Shown: in pieces, positions 3,883 to 64,000 of the stretch
How positions within the stretch are numbered: position 1 is the stretch's first letter
Layout: every line of letters begins with the position of its first letter
Origin: Dictyostelium discoideum
Taxonomy: Eukaryota
Assembly (NCBI GenBank): GCA_000004695.1
Contig: CM000153.2
Coordinates: 3,168,001 to 3,232,000, forward strand
Direction of reading: 5' to 3'
Length of the DNA stretch: 64,000 nucleotides
Notes under the pieces: model-generated
Database searches by the model: none
What the model saw: the letters and a program-made list of their open reading frames with translations, nothing else
Told to the model about the DNA's origin: nothing
Translations under genes and position numbers: made by a program

Positions 3883-5379
3883 TATTTAATATTATAAATA
3901 TATAAAAAAAAATTAAAAAATTATAAAAAAAAAAAATGAAAAAAAAAAAAAATGAAAAAAAAGTTAATTTGAAAAAATTTAAAAAAAAAAAAAAAAATAA
4001 AAATAAAAATAAAAAACAAAAAAAAAGATTTGGAAATTCATTTAAATGGATTAATTTTAACTATATATTATTATTATTATTTTTTTTTTTTTATTTTTTT
4101 TATTTTTTTTTATTTTTTTTTATTCTTTTTTATTCTTTTTTTTAAAAAAAAATTGTTGTATAATAGATTTTATATATAATCATTCAATTTTTCCATTTAT
4201 ATATAATCTTTAATAATAGATTATATATAAAAGGATAATAATTTATCTTTTTTAATTTTTTTATTTGGAACAAGTGATTTTTTTTCAATGTTTGTTTTTT
4301 TTAATCATTTTTTTTTTTAGCCATCTTTTTTTTTAGTTTTATTTTTTTTTTTTTGGAATAAGCGATTTTTTTTTTTTTCCCGATTGATGAGTTGTAATTA
4401 AAGTATGAAAATAAATTTCTTTTTTGCTTTTTATTTTTTTTTATTTTTTTTTTTTATTTTTTTTTTTTTTTTGAAAAATGTGGTAAATAAAATTTCAATG
4501 TGACAAATAAAATTTTTCGATTTCTTTTGACACCATTAATCGTTATGGCTTTGGAATCATTTGCACCACGTTGGAATTTTTTTTTTTTTTTTTTTTTTTA
4601 TTTTTTTTTTTTTTTTAAATTTTTTTTTACCAGTAGAACAAGTCGTTAAATTTTTTTTTTTTTTTTTAATTCATAAAAAAAAAATTAAAAAAAATAAAAA
4701 AAAAAATAAAAAAAAAAAAACAAATCTACACTGGGTTAAATCATTTTTTTTTTATTATTTTCTTTTTTTTTTTTTGTTTTTTTTCTATTTAATTAACCTC
4801 TATTTCAATAAACACCTTTATATTTACCCCCTTTTCTATTTATCTATTTATTTACTTTTTTTTTTTTGTTTTTTTTATCATCATCACCATCATTGTTTTT
4901 TTTATTTATAATTTTGTAATTTTTTAAATTTTAAATTTTTTTTTTTTTTTTCGTGTGTGATATAAACCTTTTTTTTTAATTTTTTTTCATTCATTTTTTT
5001 TTTACATATAAATATAAATAAATAATAATAATAATACACATTACACATTTATTTTAATAAAAGAAAAATAATAAATAAATAAATAAATAAATAAAAAATT
5101 TTTTTAAAAAAAAATTAAATAAAAATTAAATTTGTAATATTAAAAAAAAAAAAAAAAAAATCGAAAAATAATAAGGAAGTAATACCATTTTATTTGAAAA
5201 AAAAAAAAAAAAAAAATCAAATCAAATCAAATCAAATCTTCCATTACTATTATTGGTATCATTACTCTAGTGGGTTTAAATAATTAAATAAATAATCAAT
5301 CTACCAAACAAACAAATAAACAAATAAAATCTAAAAAAAAAAAAAAACCAAATTATACATATATATATATATATCCATC

Positions 5380-6146
5380 ATGGCCGATTTACAAGAAAAT
5401 GAAATGGATTTTGAAAAAATCGTTAGGGAGGTAGAAATTGGTATTAAAGATTTAAGTAAAAATAAAAGAGGTATAGAAGCAAGAGGTGTAAGTATTTTTT
5501 TTTTTTTTTTTTTTTTCTAATTTTTTTATTAATAAATTAATTTTTTTTTTTTTAGGGAGCAGAATTATTAAGAAATAGAATAGGAAGAGCAAAACAAATT
5601 TTAAGATCATATAAATTAGATTTTAGAGAATTAGCTAAAAATGAACAAAAACCCTATCAAGATAAAGCAAATCAATATGAAGAACAAATAAAAACATTAG
5701 AGAATGATTTAAATTGGGCAGAAAAGAATAGTGAAAATGGTGGTGGAGGTGGTGGTAGTGGTGGTAATAATAGTCAATCAATAGATACAGAATATCAAGA
5801 AACAATGCAAAAAGCAAAGAAAATTCAACAACAAGATATAGATACAACACATAGAATTTTATCAGAAGTTGGTCAAATTAATGAAGTTGGTACATCCACT
5901 TTAGAGGAGATGGCAGTTCAAGAGGAACAAATGAAAAGAATTCAAAAAGATATGGAAGAAATTGATGGTAACTTAAAATTAGCAACTAGACAAATGAGAG
6001 CATTCGCTAGAAAAATGGCAACTGATAAACTTATTATGGGTCTTGTACTATTAATTGTTGCTGCTATCATTTTTGTAATCGTTTATTCAATCGTTAAACC
6101 TAAATCTAAAACTGTTCAACAAAATGTTACTGGTTCAACCCAATAA
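5380..6146 (+). CDS. Qb-SNARE of the NPSN (novel plant SNARE) family. Two exons: 5380..5487 and 5556..6146. Intron GTAAGT..TTTAG.
   Basis: The protein is 'MADLQENEMDFEKIVREVEIGIKDLSKNKRGIEARG|GAELLRNRIGRAKQ...VGTSTLEEMAVQEEQMKRIQKDMEEIDGNLKLATRQMRAFARKMATDKLIMGLVLLIVAAIIFVIVYSIVKPK'. The SNARE motif with central Q and the C-terminal TM anchor align closely with Arabidopsis NPSN11 ('...RQVATDKCIMAFLFLIVCGVVAIIIVKIVNP'). Confidence 0.8.
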
Positions 6147-7020: not shown

Positions 7021-7377
7021 AAGGGGGGTAATAATAATAATAATAATGGAAATTTTAAAAATGGATATTCCATTTTCAAATGTAATGGAAAAAGCGAAAG
7101 ATAAGAACCAGATTAAAAAATTTCCAATGGAATATTACAAACTGTTATTGAAACTAATAATATTGGTACGACAACATTGGCAGAAATGAATATTCAAGAA
7201 GAACCAATTTATAGAATAAAAAATGATATGGATTTAATTGATAGTAATTTAAAATTAGCCCCAAGACAAATGAGATCCATTGCAAGGAAAATGGCAACTG
7301 ATAAAATTATTTTAGGTTTAATATTATTAATTATTGCTGGGAAAAATGTTGTAATTGTTTATAAAACTTTTAAATAA
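6564..7377 (+). pseudogene. Tandem disrupted paralog of the NPSN SNARE gene (pseudogene or low-quality sequence)
   Basis: Exon 1 is intact ('MADIIENEIELDKIIKEVEKNIKDLRKNKKDIESRG' plus GTAAGT). The second exon is homologous to 5556..6146 but has many indels and substitutions, in-frame stops (for example TAA near 6845), and odd G/C homopolymer insertions (GGGGG at about 6974, GGGGGG at about 6994). The SNARE motif and TM ('...NLKLAPRQMRSIARKMATDKIILGLILLIIAG') are readable only after a +1 frame jump near 7125. Confidence 0.5.
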
Positions 7378-55268: not shown

Positions 55269-56237
55269 ATGTGTGAAAAAGAAATTAATAATAATAATAA
55301 TAATAATGAATTAACTGAAAAATCTAAAGAGGAAATTGAAAAAGATGAAATTGAATACTTGGAATATTTAAAATATAGGAAAGAAATTATTGATAGTCAT
55401 TGTCATATTCATGAAGATGTTGAACATTTACAAGAGTCATGTGATTTACCATTTAAAAAGATATTACTCATGGGTACAACAGTTGAAGATTGGGATAAAA
55501 TTAACCAATTAGCCGATAAGATCAATGATGATAATAAAATCATTAGATGTTTTGGTATACATCCTTGGTTTGTTTATAATTATTTACCACCAACTGAATT
55601 AATTGGTAAAATAAAAGAAGGTGATGGCAGTAATGATTCAATAATAATAAGTATTGACGAAACGTGGAGAATTAAAATGAAAGAATTGTTACTAAAATAT
55701 CCAAATTCAATAGTGGGTGAAATTGGTATTGACAAGGTGACAAAAGTTAGATTAAATGGATTTAATAAGAATGACCAGGAGAGCCAAATGAGGGTGTTTA
55801 GAGACCAGATTGAGATAGCCAATGAATTGGACAGATTGGTTAGTTTACATTGTGTACAACTCCAAGGTCAACTATTAACATTCTTCCAATCACTTGATAT
55901 TGATAAATTCCCACCTGCAATTGCACTACATACTTTTGGTGGTAAACCTGCTACAGTCGATCAATTTTGTAAAATGGCATCTGGAAAAGGTGATAAATTC
56001 TATTTCGGTCTATCATTTATAAATTTAACATTTTCAAAAGTTGATAAACTCATTCAAGCAATTCCTGATGACAGATTATTACTAGAAAGTGATCAAAATT
56101 CACCAACCCAAGTTGATCAATCATTATTTAAATTAATTCAAAAAATTTCAATTTCAAAAAATTGGACAATTCAAAAAACAATTGAACAAACAACTTTAAA
56201 TACTTTAAATTTTCTTTCAAAGCAAATTAAAAAATAA
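55269..56237 (+). CDS. TatD-family metal-dependent DNase/hydrolase
   Basis: TatD signature blocks are present: 'IIDSHCHIHED', 'GEIGIDKV', 'LVSLHCVQ', 'AIALHTFGG' and 'LLLESDQNSP'. 322 aa, single exon. Confidence 0.8.
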   Translation: MCEKEINNNNNNNELTEKSKEEIEKDEIEYLEYLKYRKEIIDSHCHIHEDVEHLQESCDLPFKKILLMGTTVEDWDKINQLADKINDDNKIIRCFGIHPWFVYNYLPPTELIGKIKEGDGSNDSIIISIDETWRIKMKELLLKYPNSIVGEIGIDKVTKVRLNGFNKNDQESQMRVFRDQIEIANELDRLVSLHCVQLQGQLLTFFQSLDIDKFPPAIALHTFGGKPATVDQFCKMASGKGDKFYFGLSFINLTFSKVDKLIQAIPDDRLLLESDQNSPTQVDQSLFKLIQKISISKNWTIQKTIEQTTLNTLNFLSKQIKK

Positions 56238-58881: not shown

Positions 58882-59388
58882 TTTTAATTAATTACTAACC
58901 ATTTTTTATTTTTAAAAAAAAAGTCATTAAACTTTTCAATGACAGATAAAGAAAGAGAGAATGAAATGAAAGTTTATTATGAAAATAAGATTACACAATT
59001 ATTGAATAAGATATCAAATATTGATGCTAAAGCATTAAGATACTATGATCAATATCAACAATTAATGAAAAAAGGTGGTGCTAGTCAAAGTGAATTAGAT
59101 TCTACCATTTTGGAATTAAAGAATTGTAAAGTTGAATTAAAGAATACCAAAGATGAATTAGAGGTTACTCGTGTAAACTACGATCAACAAATGAGATATC
59201 TCACTGAACAATTCATTTCTTTGAATGAGAATGTAAGCTCACTCGATAGTCAACTCATTAAAATTAAACAATATAAAGTTTCTTGTGGTAAATGTAAACA
59301 TTGGAATCAATTGGAATTCATTTTCTCTCCAAATAATCAAGGTTTATATTGTTCAAAAGGTCATCCAATTTTAACAATTCAACCTTAG
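56754..59388 (+). CDS. PPP1R21 homolog (KLRAQ/TTKRSY coiled-coil protein). Three exons: 56754..57077, 57194..58825 and 58924..59388.
   Basis: The N-terminus 'KIQKIVNNYQKVKNQNAILKKALLQEQQKTNDLEKGLKEKEQAL...DVLDFNNQRLTKRIQLMQDHMNE' matches the human PPP1R21 KLRAQ domain 'LQGKYQKLAQEYSKLRAQNQVLKKGVVDEQANSAALKEQLKMKDQSL...LTFRNLQLAKRVELLQDELA'. The C-terminus 'ELKNTKDELEVTRVNYDQQMRYLTEQF' matches the TTKRSY domain 'LQDELTTTKRSYEDQLSMMSDHL'. Both introns have GTAAGT donors and are phase 0, joining three ORF-track ORFs. About 806 aa. Confidence 0.8.
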
Positions 59389-59918
59389 CTCTATTTATTT
59401 ATTAATTATTAATAATTAATAATTATTAATAATACCACTATTATAAATTAATAAAAATTATTATTAACTAATAATAAAAATAGTAATAATTTATTATTAA
59501 CAAAAATAATACCTTTACATTTTATTTTACGTGGTTAAAACAATAGTTTTTTTTTTTTTTTTATTATAAATTTTTTAATTTAATATAAGGTGCATAGGTA
59601 ATTGATTAAATAATTTTACTTTCCAAGTATTTTTATTATTTATTTCAGAAAACTTTCTTTTTCTTTTTTTTTTTCTTTTTTTTTTTAAAAAAATTTTAAG
59701 GGGGGGGATAAAATCTTATTTTACAATCTATAAAAATTGTAATGGGAATTAAGATTTTAATACAAATTAATAAATCTTAATTGCTAATAAATTATTTTTT
59801 GGATGAAAAAAAAAAAAGAAAAAAAAAAAAAAAAAGGGAAAAAAAAAAAATGTATAAAAGAAAAAAATTAATGGACATTTAAAATAAAAATATATTCAAA
59901 TACAATCTTTTAAAAATC

Positions 59919-60219
59919 ATGACTCTCTTTTGTAGGTTTACTAAATTAAAAAAAAGTTTTTTTTTTTCATAATAATAATTAACAATTTGTATTTTTCTTT
60001 ATAATTATAAAAATAGCATCATTATCATCATTAAGCACTGGTTCTTTGAAATCAAGTGTTTCTTCAATTGAAACTGGTAGTTCAAGTGGTTCATTTGGTT
60101 CAAATGAAACATCGGGATGGGGTCACCATCATTGGAATAGTTGTCATCCATGTCCACCACCACGTCCAATTTGTCGTCCATGTCCACCATGTCGTCCAGT
60201 ACCAAGATGTCATCATTAA
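59919..60219 (+). CDS. Small Cys/Pro-rich protein of the hssA/2C/7E-like family, copy 1. Exons: 59919..59931 (13 nt) and 60017..60219.
   Basis: 'MTLF|[67 protein letters not shown]'. The 13-nt first exon, phase-1 intron (GTAGGT...AAATAG) and 'MT(L/I)FSS(L/I)SS' N-terminus are as I recall for Dictyostelium hssA/2C/7E genes. Confidence 0.5.
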
Positions 60220-60499
60220 AGTTTAATTTTAAATAAAATTAATAAATAGAACTTTAAAATGTTTGGAATTTAAATAAATAATTTTTCTTTTTTTAAAAAA
60301 TATATTCAAACACATTGAATTTGATTTTGGAAAATTTACTACCAATAAAACTAATGATAATAAAATTCTTTTATTAACAAAATTTATTATTAAACAGAAA
60401 TATAGAATGTATTACTGATGCTCAAAAAACTGATGATTTAAAATATGTTAGAGAATGGGTTTATTCCTTTGTGAATCAATGTCCAATACATAATCCAAT

Positions 60500-60544
<45 letters not shown>

Positions 60545-60707
60545 CCTTGTCCTAATTTGGGATGTGCCGTTGTGACCACTAAATCCATTTTCAATTTATT
60601 TCAACAAAGTTTGCAGGGTAAATTAAAAAATATAATATTTAAAAAAATAAAATTGCACAGGAAATTTATTTTTAATGAAATTTTTTTATTTTTATCAAAA
60701 ATCTATT

Positions 60708-60993
60708 TTAATATTTATAATGGCATCTTGGTTCTGGACGGCATGGTGGGCATGGACGACAAATTGGACGTGGTGGTGGACATGGATGACAACTATTCCA
60801 ATGGTGGTTACCCCATCCAGATGTTTCATTTGAACCAAATGAACCACTTGAACTACCAGTTTCAATTGAAGAAACACTTGATTTCAAAGAACCAGTGCTT
60901 AATGATGATAATGATGCTAATTTTTATAAATTATTTATTAATAAATTAAAATTTTTTTTTTTTTTAGGAAAAAAACTTACAAAATAGGGTCAT
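60708..60993 (-). CDS. hssA/2C/7E-like small Cys/Pro-rich protein, copy 2 (inverted orientation). Exons: 60993..60981 and 60916..60708.
   Basis: 'MTLF|[69 protein letters not shown]'. Exon 1 is 'ATGACCCTATTTT' plus GTAAGT. The acceptor is 'aaaaattag'. Confidence 0.5.
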
Positions 60994-61421
60994 TTTAAAA
61001 TTTTAATAGTTTCTTGTTTAAAAATTAGAGTTTGATTTAATATTTTTTTTTTCTAATTTGGTTACAATTTATAGTTTTTTTTTTTCTAAAAAAAAGAATA
61101 AAAAAACAAATAATTTTTTAATTTTATTTTAAAATCATACTTTTTGTTTTTTCATTTCTATTTTTTTTTATATCAAAAAACTTAAACTCCCCCCCCATTA
61201 TATTTTTCTATTTGACTTGTTATATTATTTATTCATAAATGATTACTTGTTATAGTAATTATTATTAAAAATGGGGCCTTTGGATTTTGAATTATCAAGA
61301 ATTCTTAAAATAAAAAAGTCTTTAAAAAAAAAAAAAAAAAAAAATTATTCAAAAAATTAAAAAACTATAAAAACAAAAAATCAATTTTTAAAATATTAAT
61401 TATAAATCAAAAAATAAAAAT

Positions 61422-61891
61422 ATGAGTATTTTCAGTAAGTATAATTTTTTTTAGAAATATTGTAAAACTCAGTAAAATTTGTCATAAATATTTTTAAAAA
61501 TAATAATAAATTATTAATTTCAATTATTCCTACAAAATAAATGTTTTAATAATTAAACCACTTTGTTGATCCCAAACATGGTGAATTTTTTAATTTCGAA
61601 ATTTTTGCTCAAATTTTCCTGGATTTTACAATATTTAAATAAATAAAATAAACTAAATTTAAACCCTTTTTTTAAATAAATATAGGTTCATTATCATCAT
61701 TATCCACTGGTTCTTTGAAATCAAGTGTTTCATCAATTGAAAACGGTAGCTCAAGTGGTTCATTTGGTTCAAATGAAACATCTGGATGGGGTCAACACCA
61801 CTGGAATAGTTGTCGTCCATGTCCACCACCACGTCCAATTTGTCGTCCATGTCCACCACCATGTCATCCAAAACCAAGATGTCATTATTAA
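61422..61891 (+). CDS. hssA/2C/7E-like small Cys/Pro-rich protein, copy 3. Exons: 61422..61434 and 61686..61891. Intron 251 nt.
   Basis: 'MSIF|[68 protein letters not shown]'. Exon 1 is 'ATGAGTATTTTCA' plus GTAAGT. The acceptor is 'aaatatag'. Confidence 0.5.
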
Positions 61892-62058
61892 AAATTTAAT
61901 AAGGTTTTAAAAATAAATTTCATCTTTAAAAAAAAAGATATTTTTAGAAAATTGGAAAAGTAGTATTAAAAATTTTTATTGTGTTTGTTAGAGAAAAAAA
62001 AAATAGTATAAAATACTAATAACCAAACAAAAAACAAATGTTTTTAAATATATTTAAA

Positions 62059-64000
62059 CTATTTTGAATTAAAGTCATAGTAAGAAACTTCACCATCAGA
62101 AAAACCAGCTAACATTGTTTCATCATCTATTGATAAACATTCTACGGGTGATAAATTATTAATGGTAGTTAAAAGGTTTGGTTCATTACTACCCTCTAAA
62201 TTCCATAAGCAAATTGAATCTTCATCCCCTGTACACATACGTAAATTATTATAGATACTTATTGCTTTAACCTTTGAGGAATGAGATTTTATATTGTGGA
62301 TGGCAGAACTTGGATTTCTGATATCCCACATTCTAATGGTCTTATCGCTTGAACCTGTAATCAATTGATAATCATTTAAAAAGTCGAGACAATTAACTGA
62401 ACCTTTGTGACCATTGAGAACCAATTCAGTTTTATTTGAGTCTATATCCCATAGCTTAACAGTTTTATCAGTACATGCAATCATACAAAAGTTTTCAAAC
62501 CTTCCAATTTTACAATGATTAATTTTGGTGTTTTCAATTTCTATCATTTGCAATTCCTGTTCAGTTTCGCTATCATATAGCTTGACGGTATTACTTTCAT
62601 AAGAGTAAATATCTCTTTTCATGAAAATGAAACCATTAGAAACGTAGAGAAAACGTTGTTCTTTTTCAATTTCTTTTGTAGCGATATTGTAATGTTGAAT
62701 TGCACCATTTGAACAACCCAATCTAATGATACCATGCATAAATAAACAATATGGGAATATATCTGTTGAAAGTTTAGTAAAATTATCCTTTTCAAATGAA
62801 ATAACTGAACTTGCACCACATCTAGTTGTACTTTCACATTGTTTTGTTGCAATATTCCAAGATTTAAATTCTTTATCCTTTGAACCTGTGAATATTTGAT
62901 TTGGTGCCATTTGTAAACAACTAATCTTTCCTTTATGTCCTCTTAAATTACTAACTTTCCCATTACCAGCTCTCCAATGTCTATTAATTGTTTCTTTTTC
63001 TCTAAACATATTCAACCAATAATGTTCATTCTTTTGAATTTGTTCTCTATTATTATATTTATTATTATTTTCAAGTAGCATATCTGGTAATTGTGGAATT
63101 GGTGGTGGTGGTGGTGGTAGTAGTGGTGGCGATGGTGAAGAAGAAGATGAAGATGCTGATAATGGTGAAGAATTATTTGATTTTTTTTTACTATGATCAA
63201 AAGTTAAATCCAATAATTGTTTCTTTTCAGTACCTAAATTTATATCTTCAATTGAACTCCATTTAAATAAAGAATCTGAACTATTTTTTGTAAACTCTCT
63301 ATTATAAAGATCTCTCCAAATATTATCATCCAAACAAATCCTATTAAAATATTTACAAGTTCTTGACATTCTAATTAAATGAGTTGCATCCATTAATGTG
63401 AAAATATATTGAATCATTTCATATGGTAACAAATCAAATAAAGAACAAGTTTTTAAATTATGACTTTCCAAATAACGTGGTGATTTCTTTTTTGGTGGTT
63501 TTCTTAAATGTAATCCACTTGATATTAATAATAAAAATGGTTTTCTTGTTATATATGATTCCCAATTTTCTGAAAATCTAAGATATTCTTGATCATTATT
63601 ATTATTAATATCTAATTGTTGATTATTATCTATTAAAGCTGAATCATTTGAAAAAGTGGAAGAGGATGAAGAAGATGTTGGTGAAGAGAGTTGTTGAGGT
63701 GGTGAAAATGTCAAAGATGATGAAGTGCTACTACTACTACTACTACTACCACCACTACCACCACCACTTGAAAAACAAAACTGAGTTGAAGGAATTGAAA
63801 TTGAAGTTGAATTAATTCCATTATCTCTAAATTTTCTTTTTTTTTCGTTCTCATGATTATTTGAATTTGGTGGTGAATTTATAATTAAAGATGGTTTAGA
63901 ATGACGAATTTGAATATTTGAAAAAATTTCGGCCAATTCTGAGAATTTATCAATACCTTCCCAATGTGGAAACTCTTGTTGTTTTCTTTTATGTAAATAA
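62059..64000 (-). CDS. F-box / WD40-repeat protein (5' end runs off the window edge)
   Basis: The F-box is 'LFDLLPYEMIQYIFTLMDATHLIRMSRTCKYFNRICLDDNIWRDLY'. It is followed by about 7 WD40 repeats ('GHKGKISCLQMAPNQIFTGSKDKEFKSWNI', 'GHKGSVNCLDFLNDYQLITGSSDKTIRMWDI', ...). The reading frame stays open upstream of the annotated Met through position 64000. Confidence 0.75.
   Translation of the reverse strand, partial: YLHKRKQQEFPHWEGIDKFSELAEIFSNIQIRHSKPSLIINSPPNSNNHENEKKRKFRDNGINSTSISIPSTQFCFSSGGGSGGSSSSSSSTSSSLTFSPPQQLSSPTSSSSSSTFSNDSALIDNNQQLDINNNNDQEYLRFSENWESYITRKPFLLLISSGLHLRKPPKKKSPRYLESHNLKTCSLFDLLPYEMIQYIFTLMDATHLIRMSRTCKYFNRICLDDNIWRDLYNREFTKNSSDSLFKWSSIEDINLGTEKKQLLDLTFDHSKKKSNNSSPLSASSSSSSPSPPLLPPPPPPIPQLPDMLLENNNKYNNREQIQKNEHYWLNMFREKETINRHWRAGNGKVSNLRGHKGKISCLQMAPNQIFTGSKDKEFKSWNIATKQCESTTRCGASSVISFEKDNFTKLSTDIFPYCLFMHGIIRLGCSNGAIQHYNIATKEIEKEQRFLYVSNGFIFMKRDIYSYESNTVKLYDSETEQELQMIEIENTKINHCKIGRFENFCMIACTDKTVKLWDIDSNKTELVLNGHKGSVNCLDFLNDYQLITGSSDKTIRMWDIRNPSSAIHNIKSHSSKVKAISIYNNLRMCTGDEDSICLWNLEGSNEPNLLTTINNLSPVECLSIDDETMLAGFSDGEVSYYDFNSK

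Follow-up and report, generated by a model that had tools for sequence, protein, structure and literature searches.

Three paralogs of a Dictyostelium discoideum-restricted, cup-cell-specific hssA/2C/7E (sigN) clade: gene structure, promoter types, and duplication history of one locus

What are the three small Cys/Pro-rich genes that lie between positions 59919 and 61891 of a 64,000-nt stretch of the Dictyostelium discoideum genome (assembly GCA_000004695.1, contig CM000153.2, positions 3,168,001–3,232,000; hereafter the window, to which all coordinates refer), and what might their products do? A preliminary description made from the sequence had proposed a mini-cluster of genes in + / − / + arrangement, with products of about 72 residues reminiscent of the hssA/2C/7E/sigN family and possibly forming a distinct subfamily of it. 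The locus holds three paralogs (g1, g2, and g3, in order along the forward strand) of the D. discoideum-restricted, cup-cell-specific hssA/2C/7E (sigN) clade that includes beiE (DDB_G0276687). The identity, structure, family, and expression of these genes have been in print since 2018, so that finding them brings no new biology in itself; taken as a whole, the explanation developed below, which spans identity, regulation, evolution, and mechanism, is one that we hold to be very probable.

Splicing of g1, g2, and g3 gives proteins of 71, 73, and 72 residues, respectively, and a tblastn search of the window recovers exactly these three copies (E 1e-42 to 1e-50), bearing out both the arrangement and the product size first described; the peptide strings quoted at that time are likewise correct. 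All three genes have two exons, with a 13-nt first exon (ATG plus 10 nt) and a phase-1 intron opening with GTAGGT or GTAAGT, again as proposed. For g1, on the plus strand, exon 1 occupies 59919–59931 (donor GTAGGT), the 85-nt intron 59932–60016 (GTAGGT..AG), and exon 2 with its stop codon 60017–60219, the spliced product being exactly EAL64558.1. For g2, on the minus strand, exon 1 (ATGACCCTATTTT) lies at 60981–60993, the 64-nt intron (GTAAGT..AG) at 60917–60980, and exon 2 with its stop codon at 60708–60916. For g3, on the plus strand, exon 1 (ATGAGTATTTTCA) lies at 61422–61434, the 251-nt intron (GTAAGT..AG) at 61435–61685, and exon 2 with its stop codon at 61686–61891. Weak tblastn matches at 13.3, 41.4, and 53.7 kb were rejected as extra copies, these being Ser/Asp/Glu low-complexity coding sequence.

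Use of so short a first exon gains support from comparison with three paralogous loci from other D. discoideum assemblies: L001, a single copy on a chromosome 6-sized contig, whose protein is identical to that of g2; L002, on chromosome 5 next to prfB, whose protein is identical to that of g1; and L003, a convergent pair (L003a and L003b). The 13-nt exon and its GT donor are kept in 7/7 copies (g1–g3 and the four paralog copies), the reading frame is restored in every case across introns of 64 to 251 nt, and exon 2 of g1, g2, and g3 has no in-frame ATG, a combination which argues that the micro-exons are used. The same 13-nt-first-exon structure was established by cDNA for sigN1 (PMC2257962). 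Across the exon 2 regions (60005–60226, 60675–60949, and 61659–61910), in a window of 22% G+C, several alternative frames are open for 38–72 codons on both strands, probably a by-product of the CCA/TGT/GGT/TCA-rich composition.

The spliced products of all three genes equal deposited D. discoideum AX4 proteins, residue for residue, and thereby assign the window to chromosome 4 (5.45 Mb). By this measure g1 is DDB_G0285441, whose protein is identical to that of DDB_G0288841 (chromosome 5), and g3 is DDB_G0285443. The g2 protein equals those of both DDB_G0285737 (chromosome 4) and DDB_G0293890 (chromosome 6); going by the per-strand numbering of identifiers, the gene is most likely DDB_G0285737, since plus-strand neighbors have consecutive IDs (the open reading frame, ORF, at 55269–56237 on the plus strand is DDB_G0285437). 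A full-text literature search found no main-text mention of these gene IDs, which appear in supplementary tables only. All three proteins fall within one 10-member cluster (≥ 90% identity, 93% mean column identity) that includes beiE, with which the genes share the 13 + ~205 nt structure, at least 90% protein identity, and extreme, late, cup-only expression. Nothing essential sets them apart from beiE, of which they are further clade members at another locus, although g1 carries a second promoter type (A, see below), and in g3 the N-terminus (MSIF) has diverged and the intron is long.

The proteins are built from two parts. Residues 1–40 form a Ser/Gly-rich N-terminal module of the family type, and residues 41–73 a clade-specific tail with six invariant cysteines in CxxC spacing, about ten prolines, a His cluster, and two tryptophans (the g2 protein as a whole contains 17 Ser, 6 Gly, and 6 Cys). 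Across the 10 proteins, the six cysteines, His42, His43, and His70, and Trp39 and Trp44 are invariant, as is the cysteine spacing (C47-x2-C50-x6-C57-x2-C60-x2-C63-x5-C69, with 4–5 His). Position 41, between WG and HHW, is the sole hypervariable internal site, being N, H, Q, Y, or S across the ten paralogs; its codons lie at 60131–60133 (+) in g1, 60802–60800 (−) in g2, and 61803–61805 (+) in g3.

How do such proteins relate to the wider family? The sigN-related family comprises 96 genes for small proteins, and in 89/96 the first exon carries an ORF of 13 nt (Vicente et al, 2008, PMC2257962); its genes often stand in inverted pairs, its promoters carry G-rich GBF-like boxes, and a hypothetical “coiled-coil” domain-database match was noted for some members (PMC2257962). 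Judged by chromosome and intron sizes, g1–g3 lie outside that gene list. They share with sigN/hssA/2C/7E genes the phase-1 intron, the inverted pairing, and the G-rich promoter boxes, together with the family definition of two exons, the first with a 13-nt ORF, and a short intron (found in g1–g3 and in the four paralog copies) and of a small (< 120 aa), Ser/Gly/Cys-rich product (found in g1–g3). The Ser-rich N-terminal module M-T/S-L/I-F/L-S-S-L/I-S-S is likewise common to both. In Pfam, residues 1–37 of g1–g3 align with profile positions 1–36 of 90 of PF05710 (“Coiled”), at 19.6–20.8 bits (E 7e-4 to 1.7e-3), and this match reflects residue order rather than composition, because 0/9 composition-matched shuffles of the N-terminal 39 residues match the profile. 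At profile level, the match spans residues 1–37 only, at scores just below the gathering score of 21.4 bits, and the C-terminal half goes unmatched: nothing in g1–g3 aligns past profile position 36, in the family's Gly/hydrophobic C-terminal half that ends in a Cys pair. By comparison, a sigN-type control from D. dimigraforme (P0012, the sole real relative returned by a search with an hssA/sigN sequence) scores 68 bits over profile positions 6–90; its annotated N-terminus is wrong, the micro-exon having been overlooked. The N-terminal module and the gene structure of g1–g3 are thus those of the family, but the C-terminal half is not: in place of the last 54 profile positions (Gly/hydrophobic, ending CGC) they carry the Cys/Pro/His tail, beginning WG. 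Expression also sets them apart, since they are transcribed in late cup cells, and not from 10 h in prestalk cells, and reach far higher transcript levels.

For the tail itself, a word-indexed set of 5.8 billion sequences yielded no relatives, and a HMMER profile of the clade searched against 1.84 billion representative proteins returned the clade only, besides one spurious repeat protein (P0011); among annotated proteomes, the clade was found in D. discoideum only. A sequence search of the PDB gave only chance matches to antibody light chains (E ≥ 0.1), and Pfam, at E up to 10, gave PF05710 only, with no metallothionein, zinc-knuckle, or cornifin match. The suggestion of a distinct subfamily, defined by its tail, is supported by this N-terminal-only PF05710 match and by the “separate tight clade” of hssA/7E/2C genes described by Kin et al (2018, PMC6198379), whose members are expressed in late cup only and are ~213 bp long, with a 13-bp first and a ~200-bp second exon; the tree in question drew on genes that dictyBase annotates as hssA/2C/7E-related.

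The same study supplies the expression of the three genes, whose IDs stand in its cup-specific list (k-means cluster 6) with a product field, taken from dictyBase, that reads “unknown” (PMC6198379). In purified cup cells, DDB_G0285441 (g1) reaches 20,748 transcripts per million (TPM), DDB_G0285737 (g2) 23,317, and DDB_G0285443 (g3) 34,338; the corresponding hr24 values are 20, 676, and 1,113 TPM, and those at 0–20 h and in prespore and prestalk cells are ~0 (PMC6198379). Spore and stalk show 92–546 TPM and vegetative cells 2–4 TPM (PMC6198379). Any single one of the three would account for 2–3.4% of cup mRNA, and the ten paralogs total 311,623 TPM, ~31% of cup-cell transcripts (PMC6198379), the per-paralog figures being approximate because counting was by TopHat2 and HTSeq, with multi-mapping among paralogs. 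One further gene, DDB_G0276685 (chromosome 2, adjoining beiE), shows only 82 TPM in cup, against 8,757–50,520 for the other ten clade members; it may be a natural promoter-defective paralog, useful for locating the cis-element.

Regulation of the clade has been followed through beiE, whose promoter (−892..+9) gives lacZ expression confined to the late cup, both upper and lower (PMC6198379), the literature on this type of cup gene comprising Kin et al (2018, PMC6198379) and Forbes et al (2022, PMC9117722). Later work describes beiE as D. discoideum-only, “hssA-related”, and without a recognized domain, induced by 10 μM c-di-GMP or 8Br-cAMP and repressed by DIF-1, and identifies the transcription factor Cdl1a as needed for late cup genes. 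By extension from this clade literature, g1–g3 would be silent until ~24 h and then come on in cells of both the upper and the lower cup during spore maturation, with Cdl1a, high c-di-GMP, and PKA as the known upstream inputs.

Alignment of the copies with one another informs on how the cluster arose. By blastn, 59547–61322 matches L003 4654–6418 at 84.7% identity over 1,848 aligned positions, as the same convergent pair; 59052–60419 matches L002 at 95.8% over 1,379 aligned positions; and 60563–61344 matches L001 at 93.7% over 796 aligned positions, whereas g3 resembles the other copies across exon 2 only. The duplicated module is thus a ~1.8-kb unit (59547–61322) made up of a type-A promoter with g1 followed by the convergent g2 with its type-B promoter. 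These alignments show that the clade has spread through copying of the ~1.8-kb convergent pair and of individual genes onto chromosomes 5 and 6, the coding exon being held nearly constant while the flanks diverged. Within L003, the copies at 5001–5312 (+) and 6103–5804 (−) share derived WNNC and PPPPC changes and both end CHH, despite promoters of types A and B; this sharing looks like gene conversion between neighboring inverted copies. A search of L003 with the published primers gave no match that would make it the chromosome 2 beiE locus. The 95.8% duplication with L002 reaches ~870 bp upstream of g1, overlapping the 3′ part of the ORF at 58939–59388, so that the tail of the upstream gene was seemingly duplicated as well.

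Upstream of the coding regions, the copies fall into two promoter types that can scarcely be aligned with each other: type A in g1, L002, and L003a, and type B in g2, L001, and L003b. Upstream alignments place a sense-strand G6–G8 run at −186..−219 in 6/6 of these copies. In the window, it is represented by a G8 at 59700–59707 on the plus strand (−219..−212 of g1), a candidate promoter element compatible with a GBF-type G-box, and by a G8 on the minus strand (C8 on the plus strand) at 61189–61196 (−203..−196 of g2, and in antisense at −233..−226 of g3). Both lie inside the duplicated module, and they are the only G/C runs of 8 in the window, which has only four such runs of 6 or more. The rarity of the two runs had been recognized in the preliminary description, at coordinates 1 and 2 nt off; its proposal that they bracket the whole cluster does not stand, as they enclose g1 and g2 only, with g3 outside. 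They are better read as one conserved promoter element used in both orientations, the mirrored look arising because g1 and g2 converge.

This element would form part of the cis-regulatory sequence ~200 bp upstream, in sense orientation for g1 and g2 and common to the divergent g2/g3 pair, whose shared intergenic/promoter region (60994–61421, 428 bp) has a type-B promoter as its g2-proximal part. The G-run fits the GBF consensus (T/G)G(T/G)G(T/G)G(T/G), as quoted in PMC2257962, as a candidate site only; across the window, the generic pattern occurs 30 times where 25.6 would be expected, which is no enrichment, and it is conserved position rather than pattern frequency that suggests a functional element. 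The published beiE reverse primer equals the g2 proximal promoter apart from one extra A, and the g2-proximal type-B promoter is near-identical to the lacZ-validated beiE promoter, from which it follows that the validated cup promoter is of type B.

Does the locus act through its proteins? Between promoter types, exon 2 is 89–94% identical, compared with 57–68% for promoter and 3′ flank and 21–74% for introns, and among type-A and type-B copies dN/dS (the ratio of non-synonymous to synonymous change) is 0.04–0.24, rising to 0.30–0.52 in pairs with g3. Between g1 and g2 there are 7 changes on 50 synonymous sites and 3 on 163 non-synonymous sites, and between g2 and L001 the counts are 5 and 0; variable sites number 4, 6, and 15 at codon positions 1, 2, and 3, and codon bias is of the highly expressed type (CCA 31/31, CGT 9/12, GGT 15/18). 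The low dN/dS and the third-position variation argue for a translated product with function at the protein level. They count, as do the invariant Cys, His, and Trp residues and the codon use, against the proposal that the transcripts rather than the peptides are the functional product, which was made for hssA on the grounds that a frame-shifted construct still suppressed a mutant phenotype (that of Dd-STATa partial activity), a result that pointed to the RNA as the active agent (as related in Kin et al, 2018, PMC6198379). A predicted disordered protein and the lack of protein-level evidence in our searches would sit well with an RNA product, which on balance we consider improbable for g1–g3. 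That the models are annotation artifacts or pseudogenes, in the manner of low-complexity ORFs, might be suspected from the proteins' low complexity and from the frames open on both strands across exon 2; with cup-specific expression at tens of thousands of TPM, a validated paralog (beiE) promoter, and clear coding constraint, this reading is effectively refuted by the published RNA-seq and can be given next to no weight.

What the protein might do is a matter for more tentative proposals. It would act as a bulk, stoichiometric component of cup cells once these are terminally differentiated. Its polyproline tail, rich in thiols and His, would be cross-linked by disulfides into a stiff matrix that helps to hold the spore mass on the stalk or, alternatively, would buffer metals and redox. 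A bulk-component mechanism of one or other kind is possible, with the odds against it, and any single one of these chemistries is a little more doubtful still. Since g1–g3 have no signal-peptide-like hydrophobic stretch (highest 9-residue hydropathy 1.14), a disulfide matrix could form outside the cell only after unconventional export or cell lysis. The missing signal peptide is by the same token a point in favor of cytosolic, metallothionein-like buffers, in which the CxxC pairs and the His cluster would bind Zn/Cu or scavenge oxidants; the invariant six-Cys motif with its 4–5 His and the bulk expression expected of a stoichiometric buffer agree with this, whereas the Pfam searches give no metallothionein or zinc-knuckle match, the PDB offers no relative, and the rigid Pro-rich linkers are unlike known metal-thiolate clusters. 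We rate metal or redox buffering as rather unlikely. Less likely again is a role in guarding the spore mass, as antimicrobial or protective peptides that are secreted or released, an idea that suits small, Cys-rich, lineage-specific, multi-copy, and hugely expressed products made beside spores, with position 41 hypervariable (N/H/Q/Y/S) in an otherwise invariant protein; it has against it the lack of a signal peptide, a net charge that is only mildly basic, and a dN/dS that is low and not diversifying.

Two known systems provide analogies for the bulk-component proposal, and no more than analogies. Vertebrate small proline-rich (SPRR2A) and late cornified envelope proteins are Pro/Cys-rich, of ~72 residues, encoded by clustered multigene families, and massively expressed in terminally differentiating support cells; there is no sequence homology (one pairwise BLASTP comparison with SPRR2A aligns 13 residues at E = 0.022), and g1–g3 lack the Gln/Lys transglutaminase motifs. 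The IgG3 hinge (CPRCPEPKSC repeats) sets CxxC within polyproline as g1–g3 do, in an unrelated context and without significant similarity (E = 0.91). In the antibody hinge, CxxC in polyproline forms parallel inter-chain disulfides. Through their Cys/Pro/His tail, the peptides of g1–g3 might be the bulk material of a “cornification-like” terminal program in cup cells, with the G-run at ~−200 as a cup-specific enhancer read by Cdl1a or GBF; we regard this combination as speculative and rather improbable.

Several observations weigh against the account of g1–g3 as protein-coding, G-run-regulated family members. The PF05710 scores fall slightly short of the curated cut-off, and comparison of the clade by hhalign with the single sigN-type protein P0012 gives a probability of 0.5%, so that family membership rests on the N-terminus, the gene structure, and the published trees. 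AlphaFold2 predicts neither secondary structure nor a fold (mean pLDDT, its per-residue confidence score, 59), and the absence of a signal peptide and the frame-shifted hssA result, both given above, are further points against it. Searches for the proteins themselves turned up no detection: among the entries listed in the 2026 life-cycle proteome supplements, beiE alone appears, and it does so as a node in a STRING network, which is no sign that it was detected. Conservation suggests a role in expression for the G-run, and the high exon identity could partly stem from gene conversion.

Other features of the window may be noted briefly. The 488 bp that separate the convergent genes g1 and g2 contain a T40 homopolymer (60502–60541, +), flanked within 60400–60620 by slightly G+C-richer stretches that could be a relic coding fragment, and A20–A30 runs occur ~70–100 bp upstream of g1 and g3. 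Directly downstream of g3, a large ORF on the minus strand (62059–63936) encodes an unrelated F-box-like/WD40-repeat-like protein with poly-Ser and poly-Pro. At 5805–6146 and ~7050–7377 (+), two neighboring small ORFs code for tail-anchored, SNARE-like proteins that resemble each other (LKLA(T/P)RQMR..ARKMATDK, then a hydrophobic C-terminus). The second of these is flanked by G6 at 7023 and C7 at 7421, the remaining G/C runs of 6 or more in the window, which were set aside as unrelated.

The clade to which g1–g3 belong contains some of the most abundantly transcribed genes of any Dictyostelium cell type and marks the cup cells, a type of recent evolutionary origin in group 4 dictyostelids. To the published description our analysis adds the conserved G-run element, the two promoter types, the ~1.8-kb convergent-pair unit, constraint at the protein level, and evidence for local gene conversion, all of which provide concrete handles for promoter dissection and knockout design. 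If the cornification-like proposal were true, a species-restricted, recently expanded family would contribute directly to a cell type that is itself newly evolved.

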